Positions 15,596-22,197 of a DNA stretch of 64,000 nt are shown here, piece after piece (the first letter of the stretch is position 1; each line of letters begins with the position of its first letter). Location of the stretch: positions 256,001 through 320,000 of the forward strand of contig JBCCHT010000004.1 of NCBI GenBank assembly GCA_039028615.1, read 5' to 3'. The stretch is from Myxococcota bacterium (GTDB lineage Bacteria > Myxococcota_A > Polyangia > Nannocystales > Nannocystaceae). The notes beneath the pieces are model-generated. The model saw only the letters and a list, made by a program, of their open reading frames with translations, was not told the DNA's origin and ran no database searches. Both the position numbers and the translations under genes were made by a program.

Positions 15596-16759
15596 TCATG
15601 GCGACTCGGGCAGGTCTGCGCCGTCTCTAATCACGTGCCGGGGCACGGCGTCGAGCCCTTCGAAGGCGGCGTCGAGGCGTGCCTGAAGCCCGGGCGTGCC
15701 GCCGGGTCTCGGGTCTCGCAGGTAGACGCTGCGAACTCGTCCCGGAAACTGCCGCGCGATCGCGGCGTAGATCTCGGGGTCGTGCTCGCCCGTGTCGCCG
15801 ATGAGCACGAACTGGCGTGTGGAGAACGAGCGGATGATGGTGGCGATGGTGGTCTTTTTGTAGGCCTCGGACGGCGCGAGCAGGTCGATCATCTCGCCCG
15901 CGCGCCAGCGGAAAGGCCGGAGCGCGAAGCTTCCGCGCGGGAAGCCCTCGTCGCGGGCGAACTCGGCCATTGCGTCGAGCAAGGGCAGCGGAGACGCGGA
16001 GACGTAGTGGAACGCGACGTCCTGCTCGGCCCAGCGCTCGTAGACCGCGGCCATCTTCGGCACCGCCACCGGGTCGCGCAGGAACGTGTTCTCGAACATC
16101 GCCTTGCGGTCGTGCACCTCGGTGACCTTGATCGTGTCGTCGACGTCGGAGATGACCGAGACGCCCTCGTCCGCCAATAGCTGCGCCCAGGCCGAGAAGC
16201 GTCGCGTGTCGCCTTCGCGCACCACGACCTCGAGCTCGACCCACGAGCGCTCGCCGTGCGGCACGGGGGTGTCGACGGGCAGCTCGAACGCACCGCGGGC
16301 CCGGCCGCTGGGGGTCGTGGGCCCGACCCGCGCGGCATGAGGACCCCGACGCAACGCCAGATACTCGCCGCGCTCGTTGTCGACGACGAAGGGCTGCAGC
16401 CGCGCCCGGACCTTCGCATCGGCCGACCACCCGTCGGGGACCGAGATGGCGTCCCCAAAAAGCTCCAGCACCACGCGACGGGAGAGGCTGTCGTACTCGG
16501 GCTCGAACACCCAGGCCTCGATGGGGATGTCCCAGGTGCTCCCTCGGAGAACGCCGAAGGTGGGCAAGAAGCGGACGACTTCGTCGCTGGCCAGGGTGCT
16601 GGGGTCGACCTGGGCAAGCTCGTATTCGGGCATCGGAGGCGGGGATGCGGGCGCAGGGGATTCCGGCTCACCGTTGGCACAGCCCAGACCCACTACGGAC
16701 ACGGCGAGCACCCAGGACGGCAGGCGTAGCGACGAGGTCACGGCCTTCGAGCGTGGCAT
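15596..16759 (-). CDS. App1-like phosphatidate phosphatase (DUF2183) lipoprotein
   Basis: VISDVDDTIK, FHYVSASP, GFPRG, FVLIGDTGEHDPEIY; lipobox LGC; start uncertain. Confidence 0.87.
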   Translation of the reverse strand: MPRSKAVTSSLRLPSWVLAVSVVGLGCANGEPESPAPASPPPMPEYELAQVDPSTLASDEVVRFLPTFGVLRGSTWDIPIEAWVFEPEYDSLSRRVVLELFGDAISVPDGWSADAKVRARLQPFVVDNERGEYLALRRGPHAARVGPTTPSGRARGAFELPVDTPVPHGERSWVELEVVVREGDTRRFSAWAQLLADEGVSVISDVDDTIKVTEVHDRKAMFENTFLRDPVAVPKMAAVYERWAEQDVAFHYVSASPLPLLDAMAEFARDEGFPRGSFALRPFRWRAGEMIDLLAPSEAYKKTTIATIIRSFSTRQFVLIGDTGEHDPEIYAAIARQFPGRVRSVYLRDPRPGGTPGLQARLDAAFEGLDAVPRHVIRDGADLPESP

Positions 16760-16883
16760 CGTCGTCACGACGATCACAAGCACGTCGAACATCGATTCAC
16801 GCGAGCCCAGCAGGCCCCGATGCGGCCGCGCCTACGCTTGCCGGCCATGGGGCCCTATGCCACGATGCGAGCGCGGAACCGAG

Positions 16884-19016
16884 ATGCTCGACGCTGGTAG
16901 TGCTCCCCGAAGAATCGGTGGTCTGACGATCTTCGAGGACCACGCCGATCCACTGCTGTTCTACGTGCTGCCCGAGATTCCGCGGGTCGTCGCCAACCCC
17001 AGCCCTGCGCTGTCCCTGTTGCTGTTTCGCGGCGACCAGGCGGGCGCGATGCTGCACTTCGAATCGCAGCTCGCCCCCACGCAAGAGCAGCTCGACCTCG
17101 TCCGAGACGAGCTCACCGAGCAAGGGCAGGCGCCACGATTGCATCGGCCGGATTGGCGCGACGGCACGGTTCGGGTCGCCGGGTGGCTCGATGCGGACGA
17201 ACTCGGTCCCGTCAGCCTGAACGTGGGCACGCCGTCGCTCATCGGCGATCCGTCGTCCATCGTGGCCGCCCGGCTCGATCAGCACGGAGCCGCGCTGGCC
17301 GAGCAAGCGCTTCGGGGCGGCGATGCTCTGCCCACGGTGCTCCTCTTTCAGCTCGAGTTCCTCGGCTTGGGCGGGCCTCTGGGCATCGAGGCCGAGGCCG
17401 ACGTCCAGTCCATCTTCGACCACTTCTCCGTCGAGGGCGCGGCCAAGGCCCCCTTCGGCAAGGCCCGCCTCGCCAAGAGCTGGGAAGAGCTGGTCAACAA
17501 CGGCCTCATCCGTCTCGAGGTCATCGACGAGAGCGGCGAGCTCGAGGGTCGACGCGCCGAGGCCCTCAGTCGGGTGGGTCAGGAGCTGGTGAGCAACATG
17601 TTCACCCCCATGCCGCCCGTGCAGATGCCCCGGGTGCGTGAAGACGGCACGGCGCCTCCCTACGAGCTGAGCTTTCGCCTCGTCGACCGCCGCGAAGAGC
17701 TGACCACCACTGCCCGCTGGAGCTTTCGCGAGCGCGCCGCGCGTCGCATCACGCATCACGCCGCGGCGAGCCTCATCGGCATCCTCGGCGACAGCCCCGT
17801 CGACGATCACATCTCCTATGTCGATCTGGGCACGCCGAGCCGCGAGATCGTGGTGAGGGCCGAGCCCGAGCTGGCCGAGCTGGCGATCGCCACCCTCGAT
17901 GTCGAGCTGCGCCTCGAAGAGCCGGAGGCCCCGCCGAGCGAGGAACCAACCGATGAGCCCGAGGCCACGCCGGAGCCCGAGCCGGCCGAGGAAGAGGCCG
18001 AGTTCGCGGTCATGCTCGACCCCGAGACGCTCGAAGCCACCCTGGCCCTGCAGCGCGATCCGGGACAGCCGCTGTGGTACCGCGTGCGGGCGCGCTTCGA
18101 CCCCGAGCGCACCCGCGCCGACGATCGCCAGACCGAGTGGACCCTCGCCCACGGCGGCCTCGTCGTCGTGTCACCGCGCCGCCTGTTCCCGCAGCGCGAA
18201 CTCACCGTGGTGGCCGGTCATCTCGAGCTCGACTGGCTCGATCACATCGAGGTCGTCGTCCAGCCGCCCGACCCCGAAGAGCCGCCGCGCTCGGTGATGT
18301 TGTCGGGCGAGCAACGCACGGGTCGGGCCTCGTTCCCGGCCGCGGGCGAGCAGCCCCTGACCCTCACCACGCACTATCGCGGCCGCGAAGGCGAGCCCTC
18401 GCGCTCCGACGAGCCCTTCACCGTGCCCGCGAGCGAAGAACTGGCCGTCATCGATGGGCCCTTCGGCCCCTCACTCCGAGTGCTGGTGGCTCGGCTGCCG
18501 CGCCCGGGCCTGTTGTCGGCCGTCACCGAGTTCGAGCTGTCGCACGAAGACTGGACGCAGACGGCCTCGGTGAGCTTCGACGATCCCAGCCCCACCACGG
18601 CCACGCAGACCGTCGTCCTCCGTCGGCTACGCGACACCCCCGACGAGTATCGCCACCGCACCACGCTCATCTTCGACGATGGCCGCACCGAGGTCGGCAC
18701 GTGGGCGAGCAGCGACAAACCGAGCCTGGTCATCGGTGCCGACGGGCCCTCCGCCGTCCATCGCACCCAGGTCCTCGTGCTCGGCGGTGGTCCCAACGCC
18801 CGCGGCAGCTTCCTCATCGAGCTGGTGCTGAGCGCAGGCAATGTCACCACCAGCGCCCTGATCGAAGGCGACGCCACCCAGGCCGAGCTCGTGCTGGTCG
18901 CCCCCGAGGGCTCCGCCGCAGTGCTCACGGTCCGCGAGATCACGAACACCGGCCACACCCACGAGCAACAGTTCTCCCCCCCGCCCGCGATGACCGTTCT
19001 TCCCCCGAAACCGTAG
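16884..19016 (+). CDS. Large hypothetical protein, paralog A of the 19032 gene
   Basis: ATG 16884 chosen by alignment with the paralog (IGGLTIFEDHADPLLFYVLP vs IGGLEIFRDFSNPNTFYFLP); strong GC3 bias; no signal peptide. Confidence 0.85.
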   Translation: MLDAGSAPRRIGGLTIFEDHADPLLFYVLPEIPRVVANPSPALSLLLFRGDQAGAMLHFESQLAPTQEQLDLVRDELTEQGQAPRLHRPDWRDGTVRVAGWLDADELGPVSLNVGTPSLIGDPSSIVAARLDQHGAALAEQALRGGDALPTVLLFQLEFLGLGGPLGIEAEADVQSIFDHFSVEGAAKAPFGKARLAKSWEELVNNGLIRLEVIDESGELEGRRAEALSRVGQELVSNMFTPMPPVQMPRVREDGTAPPYELSFRLVDRREELTTTARWSFRERAARRITHHAAASLIGILGDSPVDDHISYVDLGTPSREIVVRAEPELAELAIATLDVELRLEEPEAPPSEEPTDEPEATPEPEPAEEEAEFAVMLDPETLEATLALQRDPGQPLWYRVRARFDPERTRADDRQTEWTLAHGGLVVVSPRRLFPQRELTVVAGHLELDWLDHIEVVVQPPDPEEPPRSVMLSGEQRTGRASFPAAGEQPLTLTTHYRGREGEPSRSDEPFTVPASEELAVIDGPFGPSLRVLVARLPRPGLLSAVTEFELSHEDWTQTASVSFDDPSPTTATQTVVLRRLRDTPDEYRHRTTLIFDDGRTEVGTWASSDKPSLVIGADGPSAVHRTQVLVLGGGPNARGSFLIELVLSAGNVTTSALIEGDATQAELVLVAPEGSAAVLTVREITNTGHTHEQQFSPPPAMTVLPPKP

Positions 19017-19031
19017 CGAGTCCACCACGCC

Positions 19032-21533
19032 ATGATCTACGACGAGCCCGTCGACTACATCGGTGGTCTGGAGATCTTCCGAGACTTCTCCAACCCCAAC
19101 ACGTTTTACTTCCTGCCGCCCACCGGTCCCCGTGTCGCCCGCGTTGCCGGCGGAGGCGAAGATGGTGACTACGCGCTGCGGCTGGTGCTCTTTCGCCCCG
19201 ATCCCAACGCTACGCCGCCGCAGGGCATGGAAGACGGCGGCGGCTTCCTCAACCTCGACGTCGATCTGAACGTGACCGAGGCCCAGCTCAACAGCATCGA
19301 GGAAGAGCTGCGCAGCAAATTCGGAGACGAGGCCAACCTCGTGCCCGTGCCCTTCACCGAAGGCAGCGTCGAGCTCGTGCTGCTCGGCGTCGGCCGAGGC
19401 GACGAGGGCCAGCCCTTCGTGCGCAAGGTCGCCGGCTCGGCCGTGCCCTCGCTGTACGGCTCGCAGCGCGCGGCCTTCAGCGTGGTCCTCGATCGCCATG
19501 GCGCCGCGCTGATGCGCCAGGTCATCGCCGAGGGCGGCCTGACCATGGCCCTGGCCATCTATCACCTCAAGTACGCGGCCATCGGTCCCGCCTACAACCT
19601 CGAGATCACCATCGACTACTCGAAGTCTCGCGAGCTGATGGACCTGCGGCTCAACGCGGGCGTCGGCGTGGCCAGCGGCAACACCAAGTTCGTGGGCAAG
19701 GCCGGCTTCCACATGCTCATGGAGGAGCTCCAGGAAAACCGCGCCATCGTGGTCCGGGAGCTCGACCCCATTCCGGGTGAAGGCGGGCGCGACGAGACCA
19801 ACCAGGAGCAGATCAACGAGATCATCGGCAATCTCATGGGCTCCACCTGGTTCCGCCCCTCGCTGAGCCAGATGTCGCAGCTGACCCAGGTGCAGCCGTC
19901 GGGCAGCAACACGACGACCACCACCAACGCCACGACGGCGCCGACCACCGCTCCCACCACCGCTCCCACCACGCGACCGAGCCCGAGCCCTTCGCCGAGC
20001 CCGAGTCCCAGCCCCTCGCCCAGCCCCAGCCCGAGTCCCAGCCCCTCGCCGAGCCCCAGCCCGAGTCCCAGTCCCTCGGCCAGCCCGACGCCGAGCACCG
20101 CGCCCGGCACCTCGGCGCCCAACTCGGGCGGCTCCGGGGGCGCGACCGTCGAGGCGAGCTTCGAGATCAACTTCGAGATGATCGAGCGGACCGAGCAGAC
20201 CACGGCGAGCTACAACCTCAGCCGCCGCGAGGCCCGAATCCACGAGATCCATCCGCAGGGGCAGCTGTCCTTCGACGTCGACAATCCCGAGGACTACATC
20301 ATCGAGGCCGACGGGGCGATCGACTTCTTCCAGAACCTGCAGCTGCGGGCCACCACCACCGCGGTCTGGGACCTCGACGGCATCGACTCCATCCAGATCC
20401 AGATCCGCTACGGCACCGATGGCCAGGGCGGCTTCCGACGTCGCGGCGAGATGATGCTGACCCCGACCCAGACCTCCGACACCTGGAAGGTCAACGTCCT
20501 CCACGAGGACGACGACCGCAGCAACCCCGTCGCGTACTGGTACGACTACAAGGTCACCATCCACTACCGACAGGGCGTGGCCCTGGGCAACCAACGCGGG
20601 GCCATGGACAGCGTGGGGGCCGAGGGCGCCGACGCCGAGGGCTGGATCCGCAGCCACTCGCGCAACCTGGTCATCCACCCGCGCGACGTCACCCCCGGCC
20701 TGACCGTCAACGTGATGACCGGCATCGTGAAGTACGAGCTGCTGGCCCATGCCAACCTCGTGCTCAGCTACGGGCCCTACCGGCAGAACCTCAAGCTCTC
20801 TGCCGAGCAACCCGAGCACCGCCTGGTCATCCGTCCCGAGCGCGACCTCGCCGACGAGCCCATCCGCACCGAGGGCATGCTCTTTTACAAGGACGGGGCC
20901 CAGGTCCCGCTGCCCGCGGGCGAGTGGTCGCCGCAAGAGCTGGTAGTCGTCAACGAGGCCCGCGAGAACATGCTGCGGGTGCGGGTGATCATGGCCGACC
21001 CGGGCGACGAGTACAGCAAGATCGCCGTCCGCCTGCGCTACCAGCACGGCAACCGCAACGTCGAACAGACCTACGAGCTGACCGACCACGCGCAGCTCGA
21101 GGAGTGGACGGTGCGGCTCGAAGACCCCGAGGCCCGCGCGTGGCAGTACCAGGCCACCATGGTGAAATCCGCGGGCGCCATCGAGACCACCGACTGGATC
21201 GACGGCGAGGACGACCAGCTCATCTTGGGCATCGAGGTGGTCGACGTCATCCCCGTGCAGATCAACTGGCTCGTGCCGCTGCCCATGGGCGACCTGATGG
21301 CGGTGAAGATCGACCTGGCCTACGACGACGACCGCGAGGACGTGCACTGGGCTCACTCCGAGGTCATCAACCAGGGGCACGCGGGTGCGTTCCGCTGGCC
21401 CATCGCGATCAAGAACCGCGAGAACCGAAGCTATCGCTATCGGGTCACCGAGTTCCGCACCACGGGCACGGTGACCGAAGGCGAGTGGCGCACCACCGAC
21501 ACCCGCGCGCTCGTGCTGATGCCGGGCATGTAG
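19032..21533 (+). CDS. Large hypothetical protein, paralog B, with Thr/Pro/Ser linker and beta-rich C-terminal repeats
   Basis: 833-aa ORF 15 nt after paralog A; strong GC3 bias; repeated W/Y-x-Y-x-V/A-T strands. Confidence 0.9.
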   Translation: MIYDEPVDYIGGLEIFRDFSNPNTFYFLPPTGPRVARVAGGGEDGDYALRLVLFRPDPNATPPQGMEDGGGFLNLDVDLNVTEAQLNSIEEELRSKFGDEANLVPVPFTEGSVELVLLGVGRGDEGQPFVRKVAGSAVPSLYGSQRAAFSVVLDRHGAALMRQVIAEGGLTMALAIYHLKYAAIGPAYNLEITIDYSKSRELMDLRLNAGVGVASGNTKFVGKAGFHMLMEELQENRAIVVRELDPIPGEGGRDETNQEQINEIIGNLMGSTWFRPSLSQMSQLTQVQPSGSNTTTTTNATTAPTTAPTTAPTTRPSPSPSPSPSPSPSPSPSPSPSPSPSPSPSPSPSASPTPSTAPGTSAPNSGGSGGATVEASFEINFEMIERTEQTTASYNLSRREARIHEIHPQGQLSFDVDNPEDYIIEADGAIDFFQNLQLRATTTAVWDLDGIDSIQIQIRYGTDGQGGFRRRGEMMLTPTQTSDTWKVNVLHEDDDRSNPVAYWYDYKVTIHYRQGVALGNQRGAMDSVGAEGADAEGWIRSHSRNLVIHPRDVTPGLTVNVMTGIVKYELLAHANLVLSYGPYRQNLKLSAEQPEHRLVIRPERDLADEPIRTEGMLFYKDGAQVPLPAGEWSPQELVVVNEARENMLRVRVIMADPGDEYSKIAVRLRYQHGNRNVEQTYELTDHAQLEEWTVRLEDPEARAWQYQATMVKSAGAIETTDWIDGEDDQLILGIEVVDVIPVQINWLVPLPMGDLMAVKIDLAYDDDREDVHWAHSEVINQGHAGAFRWPIAIKNRENRSYRYRVTEFRTTGTVTEGEWRTTDTRALVLMPGM
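19911..20110 (+). repeat. Low-complexity coding repeat: poly-T, (TTAP)x3 and a long (PS)n tract
   Basis: accaccgctccc repeats then ccgagc/cccagc/ccctcg hexamers encoding PSPSPS... Confidence 0.9.
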
Positions 21534-21576: not shown

Positions 21577-22197
21577 TCACGCGTAGGGGACGACGGCGAC
21601 CGCCGCGTCGGCCAGCTGCTCCAGCTGCGACCGCTCGGCACCCGCCCGGGCGCGCACCGACAGGCTGTGGGTCACGCCCGCCAAGACCGAGGCGAGCGCT
21701 TCGACGTCGGCGTCGGGATCGAGCTCGCCGTGCTCTCGGCCGCGCTGCAGCACCTGCGCGAAGCGGGCGTCGATCCCATCGAGCAGCCGACCGAGCTCTT
21801 CCCGAATCCGCTCGCTGCCCGACGCCTCGGTGGCCGCGGTGCTCATGATGAGACACCCCCGCGCGATGTCCTCGTGATCGACATAGAGCTCGATCAGCAC
21901 CTCGAAGATGCCGCGGAGGCTCTCGTCGAGCGAGGCCGCCTCTTCGAGGACGGGCGAGATCGAGGCATCGATGCGACCGAAGAAGTTGCGCAGCCCGGCC
22001 AGGTACATCTGTTCTTTGTCGCCGAAGGTGGCGTAGAGGCTGGGACGAGCGACCCCCGTGGCCGCCGATAGGGCGTCGAGGGACGTCCCCGACAATCCGC
22101 GCTGCCAGAACAGATCGGTGATGGCATCGAGGACCTCCGACTCGTCGAACTTGCGGGGTCGACCCCGGGATCGGGTGCTCTTGCTGCGCTTCGCCAT
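21577..22197 (-). CDS. TetR/AcrR family regulator (ComR/NemR-like)
   Basis: RGRPRKFD, FWQRGLSGTS, GVARPSLYATFGDKEQ, RGCL. Confidence 0.93.
   Translation of the reverse strand: MAKRSKSTRSRGRPRKFDESEVLDAITDLFWQRGLSGTSLDALSAATGVARPSLYATFGDKEQMYLAGLRNFFGRIDASISPVLEEAASLDESLRGIFEVLIELYVDHEDIARGCLIMSTAATEASGSERIREELGRLLDGIDARFAQVLQRGREHGELDPDADVEALASVLAGVTHSLSVRARAGAERSQLEQLADAAVAVVPYA

Follow-up and report, generated by a model that had tools for sequence, protein, structure and literature searches.

A tandem gene pair of a Myxococcota bacterium belongs to a cross-phylum multi-paralog system, possibly a pore or translocase for enzymes

The window (the whole 64,000-nt stretch of DNA that was analysed, from a Myxococcota bacterium) contains two co-oriented genes, A and B, which are separated by 15 nt, as the first-pass annotation had described. 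The genes and the domains of their products are arranged as follows.

16884..19016, + strand: gene A (P0001, 710 aa), subunit class A of a multi-paralog system, from its open reading frame and ortholog clade
16884..17828, + strand: A N-terminal domain (aa 1-315), a predicted beta-sandwich core with an inserted hairpin subdomain; weak structural likeness to the lumenal (LEA-2) domain of TMEM106B
17400..17510, + strand: A helix-hairpin-helix segment D173-I209 (37-residue class), a predicted membrane-inserting beta-hairpin, from its length class and two-faced pattern
17841..19013, + strand: A four tandem beta-sandwich domains (Ig/FnIII/transthyretin-like; aa ~318-710), with an acidic Pro/Glu loop at aa ~345-372, from fold matches
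19017..19031, + strand: A-B intergenic spacer, 15 nt; the adjacency of A and B is conserved
19032..21533, + strand: gene B (P0002, 833 aa), subunit class B, short form without the OmpA-like insert
19032..19868, + strand: B N-terminal domain, part one (aa 1-279), AF2 model at pLDDT 84.6
19614..19748, + strand: B helix-hairpin-helix segment D195-I239, in the 45-residue class (longest of the common ones); pLDDT <50 for its tip in the model
19869..20153, + strand: B Thr/Pro/Ser low-complexity linker in the variable slot of the family, with tandem repeats at 19944-20086
20154..20321, + strand: B returning strands (aa 375-430; FxLxxxxQxE and PQG motifs), from the model; the equivalent strands of A lie inside the TMEM106B-aligned range
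20325..21530, + strand: B four tandem beta-sandwich domains (aa 432-553, 555-642, 643-736 and 738-833), from fold matches

The start of gene A is backed by orthologs beginning MLD(A/S/I)G, and full-length orthologs of A show 44-60% identity. BLASTP aligned A11-242 with B10-276 over 267 columns (28% identity, E 7e-15), which bears out the N-terminal similarity that had been noticed at first. The motifs quoted with it are present, as are the linkers of both proteins, the alternating stretch in B, and a second common segment (A261-276 and B378-393) with the family consensus FxLxxxxQxE. A crude hydropathy check found no signal peptide, TM helix or strong hydrophobic stretch in A or B (best 19-residue Kyte-Doolittle means of 1.46 and 1.76, respectively), in agreement with the first-pass annotation. 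Searches of both proteins against Pfam, NCBIfam, PADLOC and PDB sequences gave low-complexity matches only, and their placement outside any characterised family stands. Promoters and terminators were scanned for, and none was found. The pair is flanked by a divergent gene for an App1-type phosphatidate phosphatase (window 15596-16792, - strand; Pfam E 3.5e-44) and a convergent TetR regulator gene (window 21577-22197, - strand). Both are probably unrelated to A and B because neither was seen beside other A-B loci.

Each monomer is predicted to consist of a LEA-2-like core, a helix-hairpin-helix insert, a variable slot and four Ig-like arms. In the model of B, the returning strands (aa 375-430) likely complete the N-terminal domain. 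The sole structural match listed for the N-domain was TMEM106B/LEA-2 (PDB 8b7d), a lipid-transfer-type fold, with an unremarkable Z score for the full-length query. MACPF/CDC, aerolysin, protective antigen (PA) and tube/sheath folds were absent from the best 50 matches listed for the full-length queries, which does not exclude them because the Ig-like arms filled these whole-protein lists. Viral entries in the fold search reached a TM score by query of at most 0.17. In the ESM Atlas, the matches were unnamed clusters only, including a mostly Bacteroidota cluster of 2,122 members (TM 0.71). The Ig-like domains of A and B resemble modules of pilins, adhesins and S-layer proteins. The AF2 models and fold matches thus support the early suggestion that A and B share a domain for assembly or membrane insertion at the N-terminus, with modules of the Ig/Fn3 type behind it.

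An A ortholog lies directly upstream of a B ortholog in 11 of the 13 B loci, two of the 11 being near-identical, and both exceptions belong to one myxobacterial genome. The 13 loci are spread over cyanobacteria, a planctomycete, an acidobacterium, alpha- and betaproteobacteria, and myxobacteria. A further A-B pair was found in G014, and in G004 the A ortholog is inside the main cluster. In five genomes read whole (G041-G045), nearly all family matches lie in one 30-45 kb cluster, which holds 8-10 family genes and two more divergent conserved genes in a conserved order. A quickly built tree of 78 N-domains, for which 9 of the 87 rows were set aside as too short, separated A (8 rows, 100% SH-aLRT) and B (3 rows, 100%) into distinct cross-phylum classes. 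The fixed order of 8-10-gene clusters and the separate A and B classes argue for a multi-subunit rather than a two-component unit. Within this conserved set of 8-10 paralogs, A and B are constant subunits. Homologs do occur in multi-paralog operons, a point for which the first-pass annotation had proposed a gene-neighbourhood survey, but the two-component assembly initially proposed gives way to a unit of 8-10 paralogs with cargo and accessory genes, and a two-component toxin was rejected for the same reason.

The A-B pair represents two of the 18 family genes that an iterated profile search found in this 12.3-Mb genome (G000) and is no self-contained duo. Ten others form one cluster (G000:C4:97673-133291; L001, L002) on the same contig, ~140 kb upstream of the pair, and six are single genes on other contigs; A is the only class-A gene. 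The main cluster, which is conserved in G004, also contains a divergent 934-aa member (115981-118785), with a kinase and other genes interspersed. The N-domain profile matched 2,864 representatives at 50% identity, 662 of them at E<=1e-30. The family is present in 4 of 41 relatives, in 9 of 151 genomes of a cyanobacterial order, on three plasmids and, with scoring confined to 8 candidates in each genome, in 7 of 301 members of the phylum. Close relatives carry the label Nannocystaceae, and the host is likely a myxobacterium of this kind. A tblastn search found no match in phages, and a genome scan with the A N-domain alone found no relative among 600 stretches. A sister branch has signal-like N-terminal sequences (judged by eye) and arrays of 3-5 paralogs, suggesting that the fold is placed outside the cytoplasm there. 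Signal-bearing relatives of 630-1,310 aa carry TPRs. In the signal-bearing branch (L066-L068, L098-L118), conserved genes of ~400-500 aa precede the arrays, some with TIG or NPCBM domains. A minimal version in G005 (L039:10030-17127) comprises two family-like genes followed by a caspase-domain gene.

A conserved gene of ~305 aa usually follows B (L041:13507-14418, L075:17290-18204 and L076:29313-31409) and was not found in this genome. Its motifs resemble those of ABBA-type (aromatic) prenyltransferase-barrel proteins, and it may presumably be one of them. It had no PDB or Pfam match, and a Trp_DMAT search was silent, as were its controls. A Paracoccus cluster has a terpene-cyclase-like fusion (weak Pfam match, E 0.076).

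The variable slot distinguishes B of the window from most of its orthologs, in which the slot spans ~330-400 aa and contains beta-rich repeats and a module that we take to be OmpA-like. No Pfam support was obtained for this module in long B; its best two PDB matches, 6u83 (E 0.053) and 1r1m (E 0.075), are both outer-membrane-associated proteins. It has the NxxLSxRR motif, with ASxE at the position where the usual OmpA_C binding motif has TD. The module was found again in another subunit class at three cyanobacterial loci. This genome has a second B of 1076 aa on contig C2 (G000:C2:561786-565016; L003:8786-12013), which keeps the OmpA-like insert. The two B genes share 82-84% nucleotide identity, above the identity of either to the C-terminal half of a relative's B, suggesting a recent duplication or gene conversion. 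The left flank of the window B matches L052 (short-linker B) and its right flank L050 (long B), and the right flank of the C2 copy matches L052, an exchange relative to a related genome. These crossed matches suggest that the two copies either swapped flanks in one lineage or were mis-joined. A shared 33-nt block at window 20157-20189, where assembled contigs break, is a possible mis-join point; either join there yields a B whose linker is short and whose C-terminus is complete. A contig from run X1, which possibly has the same source and is not independent, covers the left flank, the whole of A and the start of B. Misassembly as the origin of the A-B adjacency was rejected because the junction lies inside one contig and the adjacency is repeated in other loci. 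The short B of a relative (L052) has frameshifts. The dN/dS ratio was 0.27 for B against its C2 paralog and 0.47 for A against A of G004, with dS likely underestimated at high GC; B is thus under purifying selection relative to its paralog, and A relative to A of G004.

The likeness to an amphipathic beta-hairpin that the first-pass annotation had noted in one stretch extends across the family. Between the anchors (D195 and I239 in B), the segment is 37 residues long in 110 sequences, 41 in 17 and 45 in 6, accounting for 133 of 147 sequences. Control segments vary in single-residue steps, whereas the hairpin segment has few out-of-phase lengths. The four-residue steps, which were found again in several subunit classes, fit a hairpin because each adds two residues per strand and keeps the faces. 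Alternate positions average +0.79 and -0.70 on the Eisenberg scale in all 133 in-phase sequences, and 114 of these 133 have an aromatic residue at the tip. For B203-211, a helix in the model, the hydrophobic moment is of the beta type in 96% of the 150 sequences, compared with 10% for helix 155-167; helix 83-97 also scored beta over alpha in 55%, so this test is not clean. Because the 151 sequences are related, such counts overstate independence. The sequence pattern is compatible with a helix-to-beta-hairpin switch of the MACPF/CDC type. Two-faced hairpins also build water-soluble barrels and tubes, and the three lengths fit a uniform barrel imperfectly. Two conserved subunit classes have a polar, cysteine-bearing segment in place of the two-faced hairpin, and some members lack the segment. 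Two adjacent classes (L054:951-6656, L056:15926-20000 and orthologs) have one cysteine each at the polar tip, from which an inter-subunit disulfide is conceivable.

Complex prediction for A1-320 with B1-432 gave ipSAE values of 0.24, 0.49 and 0.65 (median 0.49), compared with 0.00 for three controls. The pair passes weakly: at least 0% of the contacts are common to the runs, and the pLDDT of the partners is at least 75. In the calibration, 18 of 157 solved complexes passed with an ipSAE of at most 0.60, as did both of the mismatched pairs that passed (2 of 215).

One subunit class is followed by a gene for a protein with a common N-terminal domain of ~300 aa and a variable C-terminus, which we call cargo. 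The C-terminus is an S8 peptidase, a peptidoglycan (PG)-binding domain with S8, an OmpA-like region, an M74 murein peptidase, or nothing. The cargo genes thus have the conserved N-terminal domain fused to variable C-terminal effectors that characterises polymorphic toxins. Cargo of the S8 type occurs at four cross-phylum loci and in G004 and is ~65% identical across phyla, a degree of conservation unlike that of a fast-diversifying toxin, to judge from the sequences. By eye, no signal peptide was found on the cargo proteins, and no immunity gene was evident after the cargo genes. A profile of the cargo N-domain matched five genes of this genome, of which two had been part of the seed and the M74 gene scored weakly (E 2.5e-4); four of the five lie within 3 kb of that subunit class. 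The unnamed domain (~200-300 aa) is located on contigs C14, C35, C6, C30 and C8 (L004, L007, L008 and L006); no family gene is close to the copy on C8, which overlaps a gene of 636 aa. In a Paracoccus plasmid cluster, a PLD gene occupies the cargo position, alongside two trypsin-like genes, an EAD1 protein and a STAND-like ATPase. A caspase gene (G005) and a CHAT gene (G041) abut other clusters.

From these features we propose that A, B and their paralogs form a hetero-oligomeric beta-barrel pore or translocase for cargo enzymes, a reading to which we give slightly less than an even chance. Eight to ten paralogs would co-assemble side by side into a ring, packing through their cores. In most subunits the hairpin segment would switch from helix to strand and donate one amphipathic beta-hairpin to a membrane-spanning barrel, which may act as a pore or translocase for interchangeable cargo enzymes. 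Each cargo would dock, by its N-terminal domain, on the subunit class whose gene immediately precedes its own. The Ig arms may bind target surfaces and the usual OmpA-like insert of B peptidoglycan, while neighbouring proteases could activate the complex and may trigger insertion. The signal-less proteins would leave the cell by lysis or another route, and the target would be the envelope of a competitor or prey. The pair in the window is a satellite of the main cluster, and its linker-only B would fill the B position without the OmpA-like module. The fullest version, in which ~10 LEA-2-core paralogs in fixed order build an asymmetric, complement-like translocase that docks polymorphic effectors and is triggered by proteases, and which would make this a new cross-phylum delivery system and a new class of pore former with signal-less and signal-bearing branches, is more doubtful, and we put it forward tentatively.

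In MACPF/CDC proteins, helical bundles refold into membrane hairpins, and YGR and GG motifs mark the MACPF/CDC/CDCL proteins (PMC11169675). These proteins, including the complement MAC and the two-component CDC-like (CDCL) toxins, have twin helical bundles (TMH1 and TMH2) on a bent sheet of four strands, whereas the models of the A/B family have one helix-hairpin-helix segment. The family consensus at the comparable place, YxLxFxGLRPA...GxIxIE, contains neither motif. The family further differs in its predicted LEA-2-type core sandwich, its 8-10 classes with cargo, and the absence of a lipoprotein signal in the window branch. No MACPF or Thiol_cytolysin Pfam match was obtained in A, B or 53 members, and HHalign against two PF01289 CDC-like proteins, a shallow template, gave a probability of at most 0.2%. 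No Pfam or PDB sequence match to aerolysin- or PA-type pore formers was found, nor any sequence-profile link to a pore former; profiles A1 and A9 gave nothing under E 0.2 against the PDB. The same holds for LEA-2/WHy proteins, with no Pfam LEA_2 (PF03168) match in the 53 members and HHalign values <1% against 21 LEA_2 sequences. Compared with them, the family adds a large hairpin insert, the variable slot and four Ig-like domains, without a TM anchor.

Binary AB toxins of the anthrax protective antigen type have a single hairpin in each subunit and Ig-like binding domains at the C-terminus; they are activated by proteases, and their cargo enzymes combine a common N-terminal docking domain with variable catalytic ends. 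In these features the A/B system may be a works-like analog, but there is no sequence match and no fold match among those listed, the A/B system would be a hetero-oligomer of many paralogs, and its cargoes (murein peptidase, PG-binding, PLD) point to bacterial envelopes. By analogy, then, the system might work like the complement MAC/CDCL or binary AB toxins, as far as genes and models indicate.

T6SS VgrG/MIX islands are orphan carrier-effector cassettes of polymorphic toxins. The A/B system resembles them, and the Streptomyces umbrella particles (PMC11062931), in combining a core cluster with scattered subunit-cargo cassettes and a conserved N-domain with a variable C-terminus. In contrast to both, the clusters read hold no T6SS, eCIS or Umb component, the carrier fold is unrelated and immunity genes are not evident. 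Neither phage tail tube/sheath, eCIS nor T6SS structural or baseplate genes were recognised in these clusters, and PHROG matches were single and weak in 87 family members. With bacterial gasdermins (10.1101/2021.06.07.447441) the A/B family shares signal-less, putative beta-pore subunits encoded beside caspase, CHAT, trypsin or subtilase genes; it differs in being multi-domain and multi-paralog with cargo. No gasdermin profile of Pfam matched A, B or the 53 members, and PADLOC gave 0 matches for 5 subunit-type proteins.

The same observations can be read in other ways. The subunits may build a water-soluble filament, tube, cage or surface appendage, in which the hairpins pack against protein and the Ig arms and docked hydrolases are displayed while no membrane is pierced. 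The mixed hairpin lengths, the polar cysteine-bearing classes, the pilin-, adhesin- and S-layer-like domains, the conserved S8 partner and the lack of evident immunity genes would all suit such an assembly. We nevertheless regard it as unlikely, though a serious contender: hairpin arms of ~9 residues, aromatic at the tip and hydrophobic all along one face, match the thickness of a bilayer, no tail, tube or pilin profile matched, and no sortase, pilin leader or TM anchor was seen. A pore that inserts in the producer's own membrane upon phage attack or stress, as a protease-triggered, gasdermin-like suicide or lysis device freeing signal-less wall hydrolases, would account for the signal-less window branch (by the crude hydropathy check), the abutting caspase, CHAT and EAD1-trypsin-STAND ATPase genes, and the patchy distribution. 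It is harder to reconcile with the model, which would place the OmpA-like module on the protein-body side and hence peptidoglycan out of reach from the cytoplasm, with the signal-like N-termini of the sister branch and with the silent PADLOC search; a 30-45 kb multi-subunit locus with Ig arms is also elaborate for suicide. We consider it quite improbable.

A slimmer chance still attaches to an envelope lipid-handling or remodelling device, whose LEA-2-like cores would bind lipid and whose hairpins would line a tunnel or anchor the ring in the producer membrane, the OmpA-like module tying it to the cell's own wall. TMEM106B/LEA-2 is the only fold match listed for the N-domain, lipid carriage in the groove of this fold is proposed in 10.1101/2021.03.12.435176, and a signal-bearing branch exists. 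Against it, no LEA_2 profile similarity was detected (HHalign probability 0.2-0.3%), a role in conflict suits the sporadic distribution and the polymorphic cargo better than a housekeeping one does, no way for the signal-less branch to reach its own periplasm is evident, and the clusters read contain no transporter genes. The pair in the window might also be a decaying or redundant offshoot that lost the B insert and its neighbours. This is the least probable alternative: the insert kept by the C2 paralog, the ~305-aa gene missing from the genome and the frameshifted short B of the relative agree with it, but both frames are intact, A is the sole class-A gene, and the dN/dS ratios, although dS is likely underestimated, argue against decay.

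No description of the family was found in the full-text literature, covering open-access main texts and, by term look-up, PMC12419801 and PMC7159879. If the pore or translocase reading is true, a new fold would join the few beta-pore formers, with a new route for enzyme delivery between cells; a bacterial pore assembled from ~10 distinct paralogs, each in its set place, would be the prokaryotic counterpart of the complement MAC, and the LEA-2/TMEM106B fold would be linked to membrane attack. The family occurs in thousands of sequence clusters, yet Pfam, NCBIfam and PADLOC have no entry for it. Should one of the rival readings hold instead, it would still be a large conserved machine with a new cargo-marking domain, a candidate tag by which effectors could be mined. 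Its cultured carriers Paracoccus sp. SMMA_5, Pararhizobium qamdonense and Leptolyngbya sp. CCNP1308 make the system testable. In two Nannocystaceae (L049:6264-7871 and L051:6183-7883), a protein of ~540 aa with no Pfam match is encoded directly upstream of A; its C-terminal half is long, Ser/Thr-rich and alternating, and it might be another beta-pore-type protein.
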